Position numbers and translations under genes: made by a program. A stretch of 64,000 nt of DNA from Chloroflexota bacterium (lineage in GTDB: Bacteria > Chloroflexota > Anaerolineae > Aggregatilineales > J027): contig QMIT01000006.1 of the NCBI GenBank assembly GCA_024434115.1, forward strand, positions 202,211 through 266,210. Reading direction: 5' to 3'. Position 1 is the first letter of the stretch. Every line of letters starts with the position of its first letter. Under the pieces are notes generated by a model. That model searched no databases, was not told where the DNA came from, and was given only the letters and a program-made list of their open reading frames with translations. Below are positions 32,541 to 59,488 of the stretch, piece by piece.

Positions 32541-34910
32541 ATGCGAGATTCATCCCACGATATGAGCGAAATGGAAATCCGCCAGCGATGCGGTGAACTA
32601 CTGCAAAAAGCGCAGGAAGAAGCCACTCGTCTGAAGCATGGATATATTGGGACCGAACACATCTTCAACGCCCTAACCCGCAACCCCAGCGGCATTACCA
32701 ACTTGATCTTGACCGAAAGCGGCCTTGACCCCCGTGAAGTACGCAATTCGATTCGCAAAGAAGTCGGCGGTGGGGATGATGAGGAAACCCGTGTCCCCAT
32801 CTTGACCCCCCGCGCCCGTCACGTACTAGCCGAAAGCATCTATCTGGCTGATGACGTAGGCAGCATTCTGGTCGAAGAAGAACACGTCCTACTGGCGATG
32901 CTGCAAGAGGGCGAAGGCGTGCCGATTCGCAAACTCAAACAAATGGGCGTAGCGATTCAGCGCTGGGTTGAATATTTGATGCGCTTCTTGGATATTGAAG
33001 GCAAATCAGACGATTCCAGTAACGAAAAAGATCTGTTTGGCGACCTAATGGATCATCGGGATTTTGGTGATTTGATGGAACCAGATAATGAACGGGTGCC
33101 GGGCCGCGCCATGCCCACTCCATTATTGGACAAATATGGCCGCGACCTGACCGAACAAGCCCGTCTCGGTAAATTGGGGCCAGCCGTCGGACGTGATACC
33201 GAAATCCGCGCCGTCGCTCGTACCTTGACCCGCAGCAAGAAAAATAACCCGTTGCTGGTGGGCGATGCTGGCGTGGGGAAAACCGCCATCATTGAAGGGT
33301 TGGCATGGCAAATCGCTAACGATACTGCCCCCGGCCCACTCAAAAACAAACGCATCGTGCAAATCGAAGTCGGCATGTTGGTGGCGGGTACCAGCCTGCG
33401 CGGTCAATTTGAGGAACGTCTGGGTGGCATTGTCGAAGAAGCCCGCAGTTCCAAAGATGTCATTTTGTTTATTGATGAAATCCACACCATCGTCGGGGCT
33501 GGCGATACCATTGACAGCAATTTAGATGCCGCCAACATCCTCAAACCGGCTTTGGCACGTGGCGATATCTCGTGCATCGGTGCGACCACCTTTGAAGAAT
33601 ATCGCAAGGCCATCGCCAAAGACCCCGCCCTAGATCGCCGTTTCCGCACCATTGATATTGGCGAACCCACCATCGAAGACACCCTCATCATCATTGAAAA
33701 TGTCTACAAGCGTTACGAAGAACACCACCATGTCACGATTTTGCCGGAAGCCCGTGAACAGGCCGTGAAACTTTCCGCGAAATACCTCACTGACCGCCGA
33801 CTGCCCGACAAAGCCCTTGATTTGTTGGATGAAGCCTGCGCCCGTATGGTCATCCAGACACAATCTCCCGATGTGGAACCGGGCACGCCGCTTGAAGTAA
33901 CGTGGTATACGATTCACGAAGTCCTCAGCGAGTGGACAGGTATCCCGGTGGTGGAGCTAGGCGCAACCGAGCGTGAAAAATTCTCACATCTCCATGAAAC
34001 CCTCGCCAAACGGGTTCGTGGGCAAACCTACGCGATTAAGGTGGTATCGGATGCCATCAAGACTCACCGCGCTGGCCTAAGTGATCCACGTCGGCCTGTT
34101 GGTGTCTTTCTATTTGTCGGGCCAAGCGGCGTCGGAAAAACAGAATTAGCCCGCGCCCTAGCCGATTTCCTATTTGGCAACGAAAAAAACATGATCCGGC
34201 TCGACATGTCGGAATTTCATGATGAACACACCGTCTCCCGCCTGATTGGTGCGCCCCCCGGCTATAAAGGTACGGAGCGGGGTGGTCAATTGACCGAGGC
34301 CCTACGCCGCAAACCTTATTCTGTCGTGCTGCTGGATGAGGTCGAAAAAGCGGCCCCACAGGTCTTTGATGTGTTTCTACAGGTGTTTGATGAAGGCCGT
34401 CTGACCGATTCGCTAGGTGCGACGGTAGATGCGCGTCATGCCCTCTGGATTATGACCAGCAACATTGGCACGGGGGATGTCGGCAAAGGCATTGGTTTTA
34501 TCAACAAGGCCGATGGTTTGCCCGATTACAGCTTCCATCTCAAAAAATTCTTCCGGCCCGAATTCCTGAATCGGCTCGACGAGGTTATCGTTTTTAACCC
34601 CTTAGATCGAGATACCCTGAATGAAATCCTTGACCTTCAATTGGCGGAGGTCATGGAACGTATGGACGCACAGGAAATCACGTTGGAACTTGACAGCACG
34701 GTGCGTGAACTGATGGTAAATGAGGGCTATAGTCCGGCGAATGGTGCCCGCCCGCTGCGTCGCGCTATCGAACGTCTTCTAACCCGCCCTCTCTCTTCCG
34801 CCCTGATCGAAAACACCTATATGCCGGGAGACAGAATCCTAGTAACGGCGAAAGGGGACAGCATAAAATTGGAGCATATCAGTCGGGCGGAACCTGCTGC
34901 TAAAGATTAA
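32541..34910 (+). CDS. ClpA/ClpC-like two-ring AAA+ unfoldase (no ClpB-type M-domain)
   Basis: Clp_N double repeat (GYIGTEHIFNAL; VEEEHVLLAML). D1 Walker A GDAGVGKT and Walker B ILFIDEIH. D2 Walker A GPSGVGKT and Walker B VVLLDEVEKA. GIGF loop resembles the ClpP-docking IGF tripeptide. ATG 32541 preferred over track start 32406. Confidence 0.85.
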   Translation: MRDSSHDMSEMEIRQRCGELLQKAQEEATRLKHGYIGTEHIFNALTRNPSGITNLILTESGLDPREVRNSIRKEVGGGDDEETRVPILTPRARHVLAESIYLADDVGSILVEEEHVLLAMLQEGEGVPIRKLKQMGVAIQRWVEYLMRFLDIEGKSDDSSNEKDLFGDLMDHRDFGDLMEPDNERVPGRAMPTPLLDKYGRDLTEQARLGKLGPAVGRDTEIRAVARTLTRSKKNNPLLVGDAGVGKTAIIEGLAWQIANDTAPGPLKNKRIVQIEVGMLVAGTSLRGQFEERLGGIVEEARSSKDVILFIDEIHTIVGAGDTIDSNLDAANILKPALARGDISCIGATTFEEYRKAIAKDPALDRRFRTIDIGEPTIEDTLIIIENVYKRYEEHHHVTILPEAREQAVKLSAKYLTDRRLPDKALDLLDEACARMVIQTQSPDVEPGTPLEVTWYTIHEVLSEWTGIPVVELGATEREKFSHLHETLAKRVRGQTYAIKVVSDAIKTHRAGLSDPRRPVGVFLFVGPSGVGKTELARALADFLFGNEKNMIRLDMSEFHDEHTVSRLIGAPPGYKGTERGGQLTEALRRKPYSVVLLDEVEKAAPQVFDVFLQVFDEGRLTDSLGATVDARHALWIMTSNIGTGDVGKGIGFINKADGLPDYSFHLKKFFRPEFLNRLDEVIVFNPLDRDTLNEILDLQLAEVMERMDAQEITLELDSTVRELMVNEGYSPANGARPLRRAIERLLTRPLSSALIENTYMPGDRILVTAKGDSIKLEHISRAEPAAKD

Positions 34911-50946: not shown

Positions 50947-52728
50947 CTATTCATGATGTTCGTCATCAGCTTCCGCGAAGACCTGCCACGCCCCATGCAG
51001 CCCTTCAACTGTGACACCATAATAGATGCGCGTTTGCCCATTTTGGCGCTGGGCCAAATCGTAACGAATTTCGTTGCCGCGTTCATAGCGTTTAATCAGG
51101 CCAATATCACCAATCCAATGTACCGCACGCGGGTCAAAGGTCTGGTTTTCGTGTTCGGTAATGGCATAGTGCCACAAACGGCGGGCCGAAGCGCGGGTCA
51201 CATTCCGCACCACACTGCCATTTCGTAGATCGTGCATGGTGTGATAGAACTTGCCATTGCGCTCCTCGGTGCTGGCAATTTCAACCCCTGTCAGCGGGGG
51301 TGTCGCCCCACCCTCCGGTACTTCCACTACCGTAAACTCCCCGGTCTCATGGGCCGTCACTTGAGGCAATATGATCGTTTCTTTGGAGGGAGGCAAAATC
51401 GGCATCGCAGGCACAGGCATATTCGACAGCATGGCTCGCTGTACCAATTGAACAATCTCATCCCGCACCGCTAACGACGTTTCGGTTTCATCCCGCACAT
51501 AAATCTTGTTTTCGTCAATCGCATACGGCACATCTGGGCCACGTGGCACCCGGATACGGACAATCGGGATGCCCTGACTTTCTTGCGCATCTATTTCGAC
51601 TTCCAGCTTGGGTGTGATCTTGCTGTCAATCTCGTCGTAGAGATGGTCAATTTCTTGGGCGATTTTTTCAACCCCGATGGGTTTCTTTTTGGGGTTTTCA
51701 TTGCACCCGATGTATATCGTGCCGCCGTTGGTATTCGCCATCGCGCACACATCCGCCACAATGTTATACAAATAGCCGTTGCGCTTCGCCATAAATTCAT
51801 GGAACGACTGCACAATGCTGGGGCCTTCTTCACGCGCCGCCTGAATATGGTCATACGGGTCACGAGTGCTGCGATAGGGCCGGGTGCTGGCAAAATCCGT
51901 GCTTTGGAACACCTGCACCAATGCGGCAAAACTGCGCTCCGTCAGGGCGATTTCCGTGATGCGATCCCCAATCCCCAAATTTTTGCCCATACTGCGCGGG
52001 TCGGCATTCAGGCGGTGAGCATCTGATCCCTGAATACAGCGCATTCGGCGCGGATATTCCGGCTTCGACCCATCAAAAAAACGCGCCGTCGTCATACGGG
52101 TTCGTTTTTCAAGGTCGGTGACTTCCAGCGCGTGTAGATAGGGGTCTTGGGTATAGGCGATTTTGGTTTGCCCACCAAAATCAAAGCCGCGCATGGCGAC
52201 CCCATTGGTCGAATTGACATGCGCCGCGATGACAATGCCACCCCCCTCATTAATCAAGCGATAGGCGGTCAGCACATCCGACGATGCCCCTGTCGCAGGG
52301 TTGCCTTCATCCATCGCATCCGGTGGAACGCGCAAACTCAACAAAATATGTTCCAGTTTTCGAATAGGGGTCTTGGGCGAAAACACGCCGATGATATGGA
52401 AGCCAAAGGTCGCCGTAAATTCAAAACCGGGCAGGACAAGCATCTTGTCCAGCAGACGGTGATATTCATTCAGACGACGTACCTCATCGGGTTCAACTCG
52501 CCCTAACCGCTCCAAAAATTCGAGTTGTTCAATCTCCTGCATCATCTCGGCATAACCCCGCACCGTGTTATGGTCGGTGAAGGCGATGATGTCGAGGCCG
52601 CGTAGTTCGGCTTTGCGCAATATATCCAGATAGGTAACATTCGGCTCTTGGTAATCTACCGAGCCGGGGGTATGCAGATGTAAATCCATCCGATACCACT
52701 TGGTTTGTTTCGATCTTCCTGATGACAC
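50947..52728 (-). CDS. PHP-domain phosphoesterase fused to an AlbA_2 (Schlafen-type) putative nucleic-acid-binding domain and an unknown C-terminal domain
   Basis: PHP motifs (MDLHLHTPGS, IIAFTDHNT, AAHVNS, GSDAH). AlbA_2-like core (ADVCAMANTNGGTIYIGC...IPIVRIRVPRG). Last ~150 aa unassigned. Confidence 0.65.
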   Translation of the reverse strand: MSSGRSKQTKWYRMDLHLHTPGSVDYQEPNVTYLDILRKAELRGLDIIAFTDHNTVRGYAEMMQEIEQLEFLERLGRVEPDEVRRLNEYHRLLDKMLVLPGFEFTATFGFHIIGVFSPKTPIRKLEHILLSLRVPPDAMDEGNPATGASSDVLTAYRLINEGGGIVIAAHVNSTNGVAMRGFDFGGQTKIAYTQDPYLHALEVTDLEKRTRMTTARFFDGSKPEYPRRMRCIQGSDAHRLNADPRSMGKNLGIGDRITEIALTERSFAALVQVFQSTDFASTRPYRSTRDPYDHIQAAREEGPSIVQSFHEFMAKRNGYLYNIVADVCAMANTNGGTIYIGCNENPKKKPIGVEKIAQEIDHLYDEIDSKITPKLEVEIDAQESQGIPIVRIRVPRGPDVPYAIDENKIYVRDETETSLAVRDEIVQLVQRAMLSNMPVPAMPILPPSKETIILPQVTAHETGEFTVVEVPEGGATPPLTGVEIASTEERNGKFYHTMHDLRNGSVVRNVTRASARRLWHYAITEHENQTFDPRAVHWIGDIGLIKRYERGNEIRYDLAQRQNGQTRIYYGVTVEGLHGAWQVFAEADDEHHE

Positions 52729-52817: not shown

Positions 52818-53234
52818 TTACCCAATCAATTTATTGAAATGAACGGCAAGTTGATCCGGTTCAAACGGTTTCACCAAAAATAGGTTGGCCCCCGCTTCTT
52901 TGGCCTCGCGCTCAACATCCCGCCCAGAGGCCATCACCACCGGCGTTGTCAAGAAATCTTTGGAGGCCCTTAGCTGGCGCACAAATTCTACCCCGGCAAT
53001 ATCCGCGAGGTAGTAATCTACTAGAAACACGTCCGGGCGGAATTCTTGGGCTTTTTGAAAAGCATCTAATCCGCGTGGAACGACCATGACCTCAAAATCA
53101 TCCATCTCCAGCAATTGTTTTAGGAGCGATGTCGTCGTTCGGTCATCATCCACAATCATTACTTTGGGCAACGCTATCCTCTCGCTTTCCCCGGCTCCAA
53201 AAGCTCTAGGCGTATAAATCTGTGTGTTGGACAT
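52818..53234 (-). CDS. Stand-alone response regulator receiver (CheY-like)
   Basis: Canonical MIVDDD, FLVDYYL (acceptor Asp), VVMASG, LVKPF. ATG 53234 chosen; it overlaps the lon 3' end by 29 nt. Confidence 0.8.
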
Positions 53235-55797
53235 ACTGGCGATGCGATTCCGCCTCAGTGCCAATTGGCTCAAGAGCCGCATGGAGCGCCTCATCCACTG
53301 TCTTTGCCAACACAAACTTCATGGCACTTCGCACTTCATCCGGCAGTTTTTCTAATTCAGGCTTATTCCGGGCCGGAAGAATCACCGTATCTAAGCCAAG
53401 TCGGTGCGCTGCCAAGACTTTATCTTTGATGCCTCCAACGGGCAACACCAAACCATGCAAGGTAATTTCACCTGTCATTGCCACATTGCTGCGCGTCAAT
53501 CGGCCTGTCGCCAGTGATGCCAGCGCTGCGGTAATGGCTACCCCGGCGGATGGGCCATCTTTGGGTTGCGCCCCGGCGGGTACGTGCAGGTGGATGTCAT
53601 GCCCATCGAAATAATTGGGTTTGACCCCCAATTCTTCGGCCCGTGAGCGCAGATAGCTAAACGCCGCCCGCGCACTTTCCTGCATAACCTCGCCCAAATG
53701 CCCGGTAAGTTGGAATCCACTGCGCCCCGGCATCTCGGTAGCCTCAATAAACAGCACATCACCCCCAACGGATGTGACGGCCAAGCCAGTCGCCACCCCC
53801 GGACGTTTGACACGCTGCTCAATCTCGGTACGATAGCCAAAGGGCGGATGACCCAATAACTCATGGACTTTTTCGCGTGTCACCACTACCCGTTTCTCTT
53901 TACCCTCGGCGATGCGTGTCACCACCTTACGGGCCGCCTTGCCGATTTGCCGCTCCAAATTACGTACCCCGGCTTCACGGGTATAGTCCTGAATAATCTC
54001 GACAATCGCTTCGTCATTAAAGCTGATTTCTTCAGGGAACAGGCCGTTTTCTTGAATCTGGCGCGGCACCAAATATTGCTTGGCGATTTGCACCTTCTCA
54101 CGCTCAGTATAGCCGCTGAGTTCAATAATCTCCATACGGTCAAGCAGGGGTGGTGGAATCGTATCAAGTTCGTTGGCAGTTGTGACGAAAATCGTTTCAG
54201 ACAAATCGAACGCCACATCCAAATAGTGGTCACGGAATTCGTTGTTCTGCTCAGGGTCAAGCACTTCGAGCAGTGCCGCCGCCGGGTCGCCCCGGAAATC
54301 GTGACCGAGTTTGTCAATCTCATCCAGCATCATAATCGGGTTGCGCGTTTCGGCTCGACGCAGGGTTTGAATAATGCGCCCCGGCATCGCTCCCACATAG
54401 GTACGGCGGAAACCACGAATTTCGGCTTCATCCCGAACCCCACCCAGACTCATGCGGACAAATTTACGCCCCATAGCACGTGCAATCGAAGCCCCCAGCG
54501 AAGTTTTACCTACACCGGGTGGGCCAATAAAGCATAAAATCGCGCCCTCACGCCGCCGCCGGATTTTGTCATCCCCAGTCAGTTTGGCAAGTTGATCGGC
54601 CCGTTCCAAGCGGATTTTACGCACGGCCAGATATTCCAAAATGCGCTCTTTGATGTCTTCGAGGTCATAATGATCCTCATCCAAGATCGTGCGGGCATGG
54701 GCAATATCGAGATTATCGGCGGTACGCTTGTCCCACGGCAGATTCACCAGCCAATCCAGATAGGTGCGAATCACCCCATATTCAGCGGCAGCAGTGGGCA
54801 ATTTCGCCAGACGGTCTAGTTCTCGGCGGGCCTCACGTTCGGCCTCTTCCGACATATGAATTTCAGCAATTTTCTGGCGAAACTCTTCAATTTCAAGCGT
54901 CTGCTCGTCGCCTTCACCCAATTCACGCTGGATGGCCTTGAGTTGTTCGCGCAGGAAATATTCGCGCTGCACCTTTTCCATCTCGGATTGAGCTTCGGTT
55001 TGAATCTTGTGACCGAGTTCAAGGACTTCCAGTTCCTTGCTCATAATCTGCATGAGACTGTGCAGTTTTTCGATTACGCTGTCCAGTTCCAACAATTTCT
55101 GCTGGTCTTCGAGGTCAATGCGAATGTAGGTCGCCACTGTATATACCAGTTGCAGTGGGTCATCCAAATTCAGCGCCGATGAAATCAGTTCGCCGGGGAT
55201 GCTGGGCACAAGATCAGCCAAGCGACCAAACTGCTCAACGATATTACGCATCAGGGCTTCAACTTCGATGGTTTCTTCCAGCGATTCGGGGGCAAGATCA
55301 ACTTTGGCCTTAAGATAGGGTTCTTGCGTGGTGTATTCTTCAATCCGAATCCGCGACAAACCCTGCACCAGCAGTCGAATTGTGCCGTCGGGTGCCCGGA
55401 ACAACCGATGAATTTGGGCCAGTGTGCCAATCTTATAAATTTCATCCGGCCCCGGCGTCTCTTGCATCGGGTCTTTGGCGGCAAACAGTCCAATAATCCG
55501 ACCTGTTGTGGCAACTTCATCCACTAAGCGAATCGAACGTGGCTGCCCAACCGTTAGGGGAATCGCCGTCTGCGGAAAGACCACAATACCCCGTAAGGGC
55601 AAAATGGGTAGCTCGCTAGGAATAGGGGGAATTTCATTATCTTCGTCAGAGGGTTCGCCGTTGTCTTCTGGGGTTGTAACACTAATCTGACGTTTGGTCT
55701 CTTCAGACTTACCCGACTTGCCTGCAAACCATGCGGCGAGTGGCGAGCCTGTTAGCTCAATTTCAACAAGGCCATCATGCCAAGTCATATTATCCAT
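53206..55797 (-). CDS. lon: ATP-dependent Lon protease (LonA type)
   Basis: LON N-domain, AAA+ Walker [10 protein letters not shown] and Walker B MMLDEIDK, protease Ser motif ([10 protein letters not shown]) with the downstream Lys. ~60-aa acidic N-terminal extension. Confidence 0.95.
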
Positions 55798-56938: not shown

Positions 56939-57148
56939 ATGGTCTATAAAGTGAGTTATGTCGTTCTCGGCGGCGCACACCCCGGTGCAATTATCAACCA
57001 GTTTGAGCAACCGAAAGTGGGGGGGCACGTCAAAATTGGCAAAAACACCTTTGAAATTGTTGAAGTCAATGAACTCATGCCGGCACGCGGCGATTTTGCC
57101 TTTTTACATGCCACCGTCAAACAGGTCGGAAAATCGAAGAAAAAATAG
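56939..57148 (+). CDS. Small hypothetical protein (69 aa)
   Basis: ORF with a GGAGCGG SD-like sequence 18 nt after the previous stop. Lys-rich tail. No family recognised. Confidence 0.45.
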   Translation: MVYKVSYVVLGGAHPGAIINQFEQPKVGGHVKIGKNTFEIVEVNELMPARGDFAFLHATVKQVGKSKKK

Positions 57149-57271
57149 TACCGCGCTTCGGGGGATATAATTTTATACTATAACTCAACTATACCTCATG
57201 TACACAACAACCTATTATGTTAGAATAGAGTTAGAATTAAGCTAGTTTTTCACTTTGCCTCCAAAAAGGAC

Positions 57272-57655
57272 TTATCAACAGGTTATCAACAAGTTATCAA
57301 CAGATAATTTGTTCTGTTGATAACGTTCAACCCCTCCCGCAAGCCATATCATGAAGTATTGAGGAAGTTGCCTGTTCATAACTTTTTCAAACCTGTTGAT
57401 AACCTGTTGATAACTTGCCTTTCCGCTTCTTACACAAACCTTAACTGTTGATAACCTGTTGATAACTCAAAAAGTTATGAACAGGTTATCAACAAGTTAT
57501 CAACATGCTGATTCATCAATCAATATATTCGAAATCGCCTCATTAAAGCATTCTAATAGGGGTGTCACAAACAAGGAAAAAGTTATCAACAGGTTGCCCC
57601 CTCTCTACTACTACGACTATTTAAAAATAAAAAATAGTGGGAAAGGTGTTGATAA
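57272..57655. other. oriC: Candidate chromosomal replication origin: array of 14 DnaA-box-like 9-mers plus AT-rich flanks
   Basis: Perfect TTATCAACA starts at 57272, 57283, 57294, 57486, 57497 and 57583. Its complement TGTTGATAA starts at 57315, 57394, 57405, 57446, 57457 and 57647. One-mismatch copies start at 57373 (TGTTCATAA) and 57475 (TTATGAACA). AT-rich tracts lie at 57601-57640 and 57690-57760. Confidence 0.6.
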
Positions 57656-57768
57656 CTTTCCCAAATTTTCCCGCACTCCTCCACCCCAAAAAAGTACAGT
57701 ACAATTTTTGAGCGAACTTTTTTTGCAGTCGTTATTTTTATTTTTCAAATTTTCAACTTAGGTATCCA

Positions 57769-58878
57769 ATGGCCTATCACGAATATATTGGCAATCTTCA
57801 TATGCACACTCCCTACTCCGATGGTGAAGCATGGCATTCTGAAATCGCCGATGCTGCCATTGCCACCAAACTCGACTTTGTGGTCGTAACCGATCACAAC
57901 ATTTGGATTGATGGAGTACAGGGTTATTATGGCGATGAAAAACGTGGCTACGTTCTGTTATTGACTGGGCAAGAAATTCATGACCGCACCCGCCTGCCCC
58001 AAGTCAATCACTGCCTAGTCTATAATGCCAAAGCCGAAATGAATCGGTATGCCCCCGACCCGCAGGCCCTTATCAAAGCGGTCAATCGCGCAGGTGGTAT
58101 GACTTTTTTGGCCCACCCCTTTGATAAAGGGATAGATTGGCGCGAAGACATTGAAGGTATTCCTTGGGTAGATTGGGATATTGAGGGTTATACAGGCCTC
58201 GAAATTTGGAACTACATGAGTTCATTTAAGGCCGTCCTCGAAAATCCGCTGAAAAGTGTACGGCGTTTATTTTCACCTGAAGACGCGATTATTGGCCCGG
58301 ACGAAGAAACCCTTGCCAAATGGGATCAATTATTGGCTCAGGGCAAACGGGTCGTGGGGATTGGCAATTCTGATGCACACGGCACGCCTATGAAAATTGG
58401 CCCGATTACCCACATCGTGTTCCCTTATGATTTTTTGTTTAACTGCGTCAACACCCATATCCTGACCCAACACCCGTTGATCGGCGAGATGGAACACGAC
58501 GCCGATATTATTTATCGCGCTTTGGCACGGGGCAGTACGTTTATGAGCTATCGTATCCCCGGCGAGGCCAAAGGGTTTCGATATTCGGCGCAGGGGGCAC
58601 AAGGCGCAACTGCTCAAATGGGGGATAGTATCCGTTTGGGACATGGGGTCACGTTGCAAGTGTTGATGCCAGTCCGCACCCACATCAAAATGATTTTTCG
58701 CGGGCAGGTTGTCGCGGATGAGACCAATGTCGAAAATCTGACCTATGTCGCCTCCCAACCGGGGGCCTACCGTGTCGAGGTCTGGCGTGAATATAAGGGG
58801 ATTGAACGCTGTTGGATTCTCAGCAACCCCATTTATGTTGAACCCAATATCGCGCCGATTGGAGTCACGGGGAGCTAA
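57769..58878 (+). CDS. PHP-domain metallophosphoesterase (CehA/McbA-like)
   Basis: N-terminal GNLHMHTPYSDG and FVVVTDHN PHP motifs, later AHPF and NSDAHG. 369 aa. Confidence 0.75.
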   Translation: MAYHEYIGNLHMHTPYSDGEAWHSEIADAAIATKLDFVVVTDHNIWIDGVQGYYGDEKRGYVLLLTGQEIHDRTRLPQVNHCLVYNAKAEMNRYAPDPQALIKAVNRAGGMTFLAHPFDKGIDWREDIEGIPWVDWDIEGYTGLEIWNYMSSFKAVLENPLKSVRRLFSPEDAIIGPDEETLAKWDQLLAQGKRVVGIGNSDAHGTPMKIGPITHIVFPYDFLFNCVNTHILTQHPLIGEMEHDADIIYRALARGSTFMSYRIPGEAKGFRYSAQGAQGATAQMGDSIRLGHGVTLQVLMPVRTHIKMIFRGQVVADETNVENLTYVASQPGAYRVEVWREYKGIERCWILSNPIYVEPNIAPIGVTGS

Positions 58879-58963: not shown

Positions 58964-59488
58964 TTATTCTTCGTCCAGATTATCCAGATCGAGTGTTTCC
59001 ACAAAATCCTTGAACAAACCCAGCTTGTCATCCAATGCCGCGCCTTTTTCAGTCGGGACATCGGGTTCATGTTCAACATCTTCTTCGGGGGTAACAGCGG
59101 CGGCATCCATCACTTCAGGTTCAACATAAATCGGTACGCGGGCACGGACGGCTAATGCAATGGCGTCACTAGGGCGAGAATCTACTTCAAGTTCACGCCC
59201 ATCCAATTCAATCACAATCTTGGCGAAGAATATATCATCGGGACGGCGCAGTTCGGTGACCACCACATATTGAACTTCGGCTCCCATTTCGACAATGAGC
59301 GATTTTAGCAGGTCGTGGGTCAAAGGGCGTTTGTGTTGAACATCTTGAAGCTCAGTGGTAATGGCTTCCGCTTCGTATGGCCCAATCCAGATTGCCAGAT
59401 ACCGCTCGCTGCCTTCTTCTTTTAGAATGACCACCCGGTTTTGGGTCATCAAGCTCATTCTAATACAATCAATTTTGACCTCTACCAT
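58964..59488 (-). CDS. Bifunctional nuclease (BFN/DUF151) family protein
   Basis: N-terminal 130 aa match the DUF151 pattern (VVILKEEGSERYLAIWIGPYEAEAI...RPLTHDLL...SRPSDAIALAVRARVPIYV). Acidic C-terminal tail. Confidence 0.8.
   Translation of the reverse strand: MVEVKIDCIRMSLMTQNRVVILKEEGSERYLAIWIGPYEAEAITTELQDVQHKRPLTHDLLKSLIVEMGAEVQYVVVTELRRPDDIFFAKIVIELDGRELEVDSRPSDAIALAVRARVPIYVEPEVMDAAAVTPEEDVEHEPDVPTEKGAALDDKLGLFKDFVETLDLDNLDEE

Follow-up and report, generated by a model that had tools for sequence, protein, structure and literature searches.

The 620-bp gap at positions 57149–57768 of the 64-kb stretch of DNA analysed in this study (the window) is probably the DnaA-dependent chromosomal origin of replication (oriC) of an uncultured Anaerolineae (Chloroflexota) bacterium, unlinked from dnaA. 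Judged from its sequence, the locus appears to carry every feature of a DnaA-dependent origin together with a basal unwinding system (BUS), and to have been conserved over deep divergence. In the preliminary description of this DNA, the gap had been interpreted as a chromosomal origin or, at the minimum, a locus that titrates DnaA, and this proposal is now supported by four independent lines of evidence: the repeated motif marks DnaA-linked origins elsewhere; the gap contains a complete module of box, GC-rich spacer, DnaA-trios and AT-rich DNA, with the orientation and spacing of the published rule; the module is conserved beside an orthologous PHP gene in seven further relative loci of five lineages; and the flanking gene blocks have been exchanged and inverted around the locus between lineages. 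What was directly observed is the sequence anatomy of the gap, how rare it is statistically, how well it is conserved, and how closely it resembles dnaA-linked origins. Our confidence in the origin reading is limited by the mixed skew evidence and by the extent of the DNA covered, 72.7 kb around the locus, in which dnaA does not lie.

Anatomy of the intergenic gap

The gap is bordered on the left by a 69-aa ORF (56939–57148, +), which itself follows a cNMP-binding gene, and on the right by a PHP-domain gene (57769–58878, +). Exact protein matches (MCQ3931096–MCQ3931140, from a contig of 384,718 bp) assign the window to a Chloroflexota/Anaerolineae MAG. The same locus was found in four independent Logan assemblies, and its junctions are therefore real. 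The sole ORF inside the gap (57459–57761, 100 aa, TTG start) overlaps the boxes and is not credible as a real gene. Within 384 bp of the gap (57272–57655), 12 perfect copies of the 9-mer TTATCAACA are found on the two strands, together with two one-mismatch copies, both TTATGAACA, at 57373 (−) and 57475 (+). This recount gives the same numbers as the preliminary description, and the 11-bp spacings listed there (57272/57283/57294; 57394/57405; 57446/57457; 57475/57486/57497) are all exact; the extended unit that it gave, GTTATCAACA(G/A)G, fits most copies, but not every one. In the whole window, perfect TTATCAACA occurs 13 times on both strands, with the only copy outside the cluster at 34498, while dinucleotide-preserving shuffles yielded 0.56 copies per 64 kb on average and never more than 3. 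The box density of the intergenic cluster (14 boxes, 12 of them perfect) is thus far above chance, as would be expected of an oriC, and both the cluster and the trio run described below are unique within 72.7 kb of the source genome. The 9-mer has an A at position 6 and differs from TTATCCACA by one mismatch; based on this similarity, its co-occurrence with dnaA and its pattern of variation, it is a candidate DnaA recognition site.

The cluster opens with three perfect boxes (57272–57302, +; starts at 57272, 57283 and 57294, 11 bp apart), of which box 57272 is kept in 5/5 aligned genomes, while boxes 57283 and 57294 vary. A perfect inverted box (57315–57323, −), which forms a 12-bp inverted repeat with box 57294, is kept only in the closest relative (96% PHP identity). 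It is followed by a one-mismatch box TTATGAACA (57373–57381, −), identical across the four closest genomes, and by two perfect boxes in 11-bp phase (57394–57413, −), where box 57405 is invariant in 5/5 genomes. Another two perfect boxes in the same phase (57446–57465, −) face the next array over a 9-bp gap between boxes, which results in a [-,-][+,+,+] arrangement. This next array consists of three boxes in 11-bp phase (TTATGAACA, TTATCAACA, TTATCAACA; 57475–57505, +), whose positions are kept in 5/5 genomes, with changes only at box positions 3, 5 and 6.

To the left of the arrays, a site at 57216–57241, TATGTTAGAATAGAGTTAGAATTAAG, contains two GTTAGAAT repeats 11 bp apart and is conserved in the four closest genomes, while the neighbouring sequence diverges. 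It is promoter-like (TGTACA-16-TAGAAT, with TG upstream), points right into the box arrays, and may be a start point for transcripts that enter the origin or a binding site for another protein.

The unwinding module, which was overlooked in the preliminary description, consists of a box at 57583–57591 (+), a 13-nt GC-rich spacer GGTTGCCCCCTCT (57592–57604, +), the DnaA-trios CTACTACTACGACTA (57605–57619, −) and an AT-rich stretch TTTAAAAATAAAAAATAG (57620–57637), in this order. The box, a putative anchoring DnaA box, is invariant in 5/5 aligned genomes, and the spacer occupies the second-box position of relatives. The top strand of the trios reads CTA CTA CTA CGA CTA, and the bottom strand 3'-GAT GAT GAT GCT GAT-5', so that the CTA repeats correspond to the DnaA-trio consensus, 3'-GAT-5', on the bottom strand. 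The distance from the start of box 57583 to the first trio is 22 nt, the same as in the relative locus L143 (21 nt in L148, L071, L154 and L155). The string CTACTACTA occurs once in the 64 kb, at the module, with an expectation of 0.01. According to the published BUS rule, the system comprises a box with up to two mismatches, a spacer of 0–16 nt (observed peak at 10–13) and at least three trios, the boxes and trios being written 3'-to-5' on one strand in the supplementary table of that study (PMC8287927). The module of the window shows the same strand relationship as this table, and a box, a spacer of no more than 16 nt and at least three 3'-GAT-5' trios are found in the correct orientation at 57583–57619.

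For the 25-mer at 57615–57639, the duplex free energy is −24.1 kcal/mol, compared with −34.6 (sd 2.9) on average over the window, which places it among the least stable in the 64 kb, as is fitting for easily melted AT-rich DNA. In all relatives, AT-rich DNA comes after the trios, and the stretch at 57620–57637 is the probable first site of duplex opening. A perfect inverted box (57647–57655, −), kept only in the 96% relative, lies past it. Thus, the tract 57601–57640, previously taken to flank the array, is located inside it, between boxes 57583 (+) and 57647 (−), and is composed of the DnaA-trios and the AT stretch.

A second tract, 57690–57760, had also been regarded as an AT-rich flank of the array. 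It was rejected as an unwinding element, being poorly conserved and carrying a promoter-like −10: apart from the −10-like TACAAT at 57700–57705, the tract is unconserved. This hexamer belongs to a conserved AAAAGTACAGTACAATTTT (57690–57708, +), which the four closest genomes retain amid unconserved surroundings, and which, to judge by its sequence and position, is probably the PHP promoter and not a part of the origin. The tract as a whole is more likely the PHP promoter and leader.

Binding of DnaA, unwinding and firing at the gap are what we infer from this anatomy. DnaA would bind the 14 boxes through its domain IV, the boxes forming short arrays, each with two or three sites facing the same side of the helix and with the 9-mers 2 bp apart; the cooperative site arrays of E. 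coli oriC are spaced in this way (PMC6070618), and it is this spacing that supports their cooperative filling. Box 57583–57591 would serve as the anchor, from which a DnaA-ATP oligomer would extend over the 13-nt GC spacer, reach the bottom-strand GAT trios (57605–57619) and keep that strand single-stranded. The oligomer would open the adjoining AT stretch (57620–57637), and the helicase would be loaded there.

As had been stated before, dnaA is absent from the window, and tblastn with a DnaA protein query detected it neither there nor in any related locus. Pfam scans revealed no dnaN, recF, gyrB or par genes among the larger ORFs of the window, and none of dnaA, dnaN, recF, gyrB, gidA and par is found in the 57 kb left of the locus or the 15 kb right of it. 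Typical origin neighbours (dnaA, dnaN etc.) are missing from both the 64-kb window and the 20-kb loci of the relatives. The parS search gave no match, and no family was matched in the Rfam search. Linkage to dnaA/dnaN is common for oriC, but not obligatory.

Conservation in relatives and occurrence of the motif in other genomes

PHP orthologues were obtained by protein search, and their contigs gave a series of 96–61% identity with seven further loci of five Anaerolineae-relative lineages. Clusters of TTATCAACA boxes were found beside PHP in L145 (96%) and in L144 and L125 (80%). The cluster comprises 12 boxes of the TTTTCAACA type in L155 (68%), 13 boxes, mostly TTTTCAACA, in L154 (66%), 15 boxes with TTATGAACA and TTTTCCACA mixed in on the 3.68-Mb contig L143 (65%), and 9–10 boxes in Anaerolinea sp. 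L148/L149 (61%). In L148/L149 the cluster is located downstream of PHP, and in all the others, i.e., six relative loci of four lineages, directly upstream. The orthologous loci keep the 9–15-box cluster and the box/GC/CTA-trio/AT module directly beside PHP, and the element is thus conserved, as an oriC should be, in L145, L144, L125, L155, L154, L143 and L148. The cluster ends with 'box-GC spacer-CTACTACTAC...-AT' in L145, L144 and L125, and with 'box-box-CCC-CTACTACTACTACTA-AT' in L143, L154 and L155; the module of L148/L149 reads TTTTCAACAC TTTCCACACCT CTACCACTACTACTG, followed by AT-rich DNA. Four more distant PHP orthologues (L147, L151, L152 and L156; 57–64% identity) have no cluster within 10 kb.

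In the five-genome alignment, 63% of the box columns and 87% of the trio columns are invariant, compared to 17–25% elsewhere. The box substitutions fall at positions 3, 5 and 6 and lead to TTATGAACA, TTTTCCACA and TTTTCAACA; the same positions differ among the box variants of these clusters. The dominant box drifts by lineage, being TTATCAACA in the window, TTATGAACA/TTTTCCACA in L143, TTTTCAACA in L154 and L155, and TTATCCACA/TTTTCCACA in L148, and the CTA trios stay fixed while the box sequence drifts. Such a drift suggests co-variation with the DNA-binding domain of DnaA.

The order of genes around the locus differs between lineages. In the window, a Lon block (minus strand, 46.5–56.4 kb) is followed by the origin, PHP and BFN, and then by PBP1A (plus strand), whereas L154 and L155 have PBP1A (minus) first, then origin-PHP-BFN and finally the Lon block (plus). 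The Lon block and PBP1A have swapped both side and strand, at similar distances to the locus, and in both arrangements they are always transcribed away from it. This exchange has the pattern of inversions centred on an origin, which is suggestive, but not a proof. A terminus-centred arrangement would give head-on genes.

The surroundings of the locus have several further peculiarities. About 5 kb from the origin, within the conserved Lon block, a second PHP-domain protein is encoded (50947–52728, −), which is fused to a Schlafen AlbA_2 domain; its gene moves with the block in relatives. The longest ORF of the response-regulator gene (52818–53315, −; 165 aa) overlaps the Lon gene (53206–55797, −) by 110 bp, and its true start is probably located further downstream, because 117 or 138 aa are called in other assemblies. 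The independent Logan contigs L139 and L140 share the same right end (window-equivalent of about 72.7 kb), just after a GAF/PAS protein gene, which suggests a repeat or another assembly breaker.

For the search in other genomes, one genome per species was scanned with the pattern TTATCAACANGTTATCAACA, which represents an 11-bp-phased box pair. The scan gave at least 120 8-kb blocks from many phyla, and the source genome is not among the matches listed. DnaA is encoded in 32 of the 120 blocks among the matches listed, with only about 0.2 expected for random placement; hence, the 11-bp-phased TTATCAACA pair is an origin marker. In five Poribacteria loci (L071, L087, L099, L076 and L009), the clusters fill the spacer between dnaA and a RecF-like gene. 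These clusters consist of 11-bp-phased arrays, [-,-][+,+], with 'GTTATCCACTTATCAACAGCCC CTACTACTACTACTA' next, then AT-rich DNA and finally an inverted box, which has a place analogous to that of box 57647–57655; the [-,-][+,+] arrangement was seen in the dnaA-recF origins of L099, L071 and L087. No synteny was found between the Poribacteria origin loci and the window. Pelolinea (Anaerolineae, L061) has a comparable cluster, composed of TTATCCACA and TTATCAACA boxes together with 'CCACATATCCACAGTCC CTACTATTAATACTA', and no dnaA lies alongside it. The protein search with a Poribacteria DnaA query returned Poribacteria matches only, and no Anaerolineae dnaA locus.

Clusters of TTATCAACA boxes located away from dnaA were also observed. 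In MAG GFS_9287 (L072, 4933–5649), 12 boxes lie between a phosphoribosyltransferase-like gene and recA; in L111 (2950–3124), a large cluster lies between gidA/mnmG and nusA; and in L095 (6191–6418), nine boxes are flanked by the genes for an LRR protein and a T2SSE ATPase. The window shares no synteny with the TTATCAACANGTTATCAACA matches listed, save for a bifunctional-nuclease (BFN) gene near the box pairs in two Desulfobacterales loci. In these two MAGs (L043, 3083–3451; L074, 5079–5447), the BFN gene is about 350–500 bp from a phased TTATCAACA pair. In the window, the BFN gene (58964–59488, −) comes after PHP, as it also does in L145, L152, L154 and L155. The proximity of BFN to phased pairs may be a coincidence.

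Strand asymmetry and alternative explanations

Since whole-sequence GC skew is confounded by gene strand, the skew was determined at four-fold degenerate sites for plus- and minus-strand genes separately. The window was combined with the identical Logan contig L139, which reaches 8.7 kb past it, and the resulting 72.7 kb take in 57 kb left of the locus and 15 kb right of it. On the left flank, the skew is −0.19 in plus genes and −0.12 in minus genes, with a strand-independent value of about −0.15 to −0.20; on the right flank, the corresponding values are −0.32, −0.05 and about −0.185. Within 10 kb of the locus, the strand-independent skew is −0.17 on both sides. The skew check advised in the preliminary description, when run locally at four-fold sites, thus failed to reveal a switch across the locus in the source genome (57 kb left, 15 kb right), and a mirror-image switch would be many standard errors from the values observed. 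No skew switch was found at the locus in L145 either. The asymmetry of the window is real, because the sign of the estimator flips on reverse complementation, and its mean over 48 control loci is an unbiased 0.02 (sd 0.16). On the other hand, a four-fold-site step across the locus in the expected direction was detected in L143 (+0.15), L154 (+0.19) and L155 (+0.17), with a change of sign in L154, while L148 has nearly no asymmetry. The skew evidence is therefore mixed: it speaks for an origin in one subclade and against it in the window's own lineage. A skew switch is a usual correlate of origins, but not a strict defining feature.

About two-thirds of the CDS to the left of the locus are on the plus strand, head-on to a leftward fork. 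The gene-strand majority was rejected as evidence, as it did not predict the sign of the skew at the 8-kb scale in controls (r = 0.03). Throughout the 72.7 kb, the strand-independent four-fold skew stays negative (about −0.12 to −0.29). Relative to the PHP strand, it is negative in most independent orthologous loci, including the cluster-free ones (loci L127–L156), with L144, L152 and L134 as exceptions. Nothing specific on Anaerolineae origins or skew was found in the literature.

The absence of a four-fold-site skew change in the window and L145, as well as the lack of origin-marker genes and parS nearby, would also be consistent with an origin-type DnaA-box cluster that is not the main origin here, i.e., a titrating or regulatory site, or a dormant, secondary or former origin, with the active oriC elsewhere, e.g., beside dnaA. 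We regard this as rather unlikely. The trios are the best-conserved part of the locus (87% invariant columns), and twelve perfect boxes argue for continuing selection; in addition, three relatives (L143, L154 and L155) have the expected skew step, and the gene blocks on either side have been inverted around the locus. For Anaerolinea thermophila UNI-1, the BUS prediction in the literature is weak, with two mismatches in the box, a spacer of 16 nt and a score of 7 at coordinates 420–460 (PMC8287927, supplementary file 3), which also argues against this alternative and, as a hint and not as a test, fits a true origin elsewhere in the class. The explanation survives only because the skew switch is missing and because the 72.7 kb covered do not extend to dnaA. 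In Anaerolinea sp. L148/L149, a strong box-plus-trio cluster is located by the PHP orthologue, compared to the weak prediction for A. thermophila UNI-1, and the database origin for the genus Anaerolinea may be misplaced.

In six relative loci of four lineages, the cluster immediately precedes PHP and is followed by a −10-like element, which raises the possibility that the boxes serve as operators, and that DnaA or a different DNA-binding protein regulates the PHP phosphoesterase gene downstream by binding to them. However, a simple operator is excluded because in L148/L149 the cluster is on the other side of PHP, and the orthologues in L147, L151, L152 and L156 have no cluster at all. Fourteen sites with trios and an AT stretch are far beyond the needs of an operator, and in other phyla this motif is a mark of origins linked to dnaA, which leaves this explanation very improbable. 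Even less credible is the iteron-type origin of an integrated plasmid or another mobile element, a reading that the short direct repeats and the AT-rich intergenic region might evoke. No Rep, partition, integrase or transfer gene is found nearby, neither the adjacent Rep gene nor the 17–22-bp iterons of plasmid-type origins are present, and there is no similarity to 72,556 plasmid and 50,697 phage records. Moreover, the flanks are housekeeping genes with synteny conserved across relatives, and the repeat is a 9-mer of DnaA-box type, not a 17–22-bp iteron.

The chromosomal-origin reading provides a concrete candidate origin for an uncultured Anaerolineae lineage and several of its relatives, which could be used in closing and orienting MAGs, in estimating growth rates from coverage, and in correcting dnaA-anchored origin predictions in the class. 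It also offers a clean natural example of a box/trio/AT unwinding module in Chloroflexota, where the box sequence drifts among relatives (TTATCAACA, TTATGAACA, TTTTCAACA, TTATCCACA) and the trios are fixed. A more far-reaching possibility, which we consider quite doubtful, is that in this Anaerolineae group the origin has long been unlinked from dnaA and travels with the PHP gene, and that in the lineage of the window the module sits where the asymmetry does not switch. If an origin long unlinked and travelling with PHP is true, any dnaA-adjacent origin prediction in Anaerolineae would be wrong; a conserved module without an asymmetry switch would mean that replication is markedly asymmetric or runs in one direction, that a second origin exists, or that the strand bias is not set by replication.

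Comparison with known systems

Most likely, the locus is an ordinary origin that merely does not lie beside dnaA, a separation also known from E. coli and other lineages, and no new kind of system is revealed. It resembles the titration and reactivation loci datA and DARS1/2 of E. coli and the DnaA-box clusters of B. subtilis in having DnaA boxes clustered away from dnaA. Such titration/reactivation loci have few boxes and are not known to carry trios or an unwinding element, whereas the gap has trios as well as an unwinding element, both of which are conserved, and this counts against a titrating role. The likeness to E. coli oriC lies in the location apart from dnaA (between gidA/mnmG and mioC in E. 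coli) and in arrays of 9-mers 2 bp apart in opposite orientations. In contrast to the window, where most sites are identical consensus copies, E. coli has low-affinity sites in its arrays, set between anchors of high affinity, and a weak trio signal.

The dnaA-recF origins of Poribacteria share with the gap the TTATCAACA box, the 11-bp-phased arrays, the [-,-][+,+] arrangement and the subsequent box/GC/CTACTACTA/AT/inverted-box order. They differ in being located beside dnaA, in belonging to another phylum, and in having a tandem anchoring pair with a 4-nt GC spacer. Similarly, in the incC-type oriC of B. subtilis with its BUS (Pelliciari et al. 2021, PMC8287927), a top-strand TTATC(A/C)ACA box precedes a 13-nt GC-rich spacer, three or more bottom-strand 3'-GAT-5' trios and AT-rich DNA, with further boxes upstream, as in the window. 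The differences from this system are that the window box is TTATCAACA, with A at position 6, that the locus does not lie between dnaA and dnaN, and that the window has one anchoring box instead of the tandem pair, which its relatives keep.
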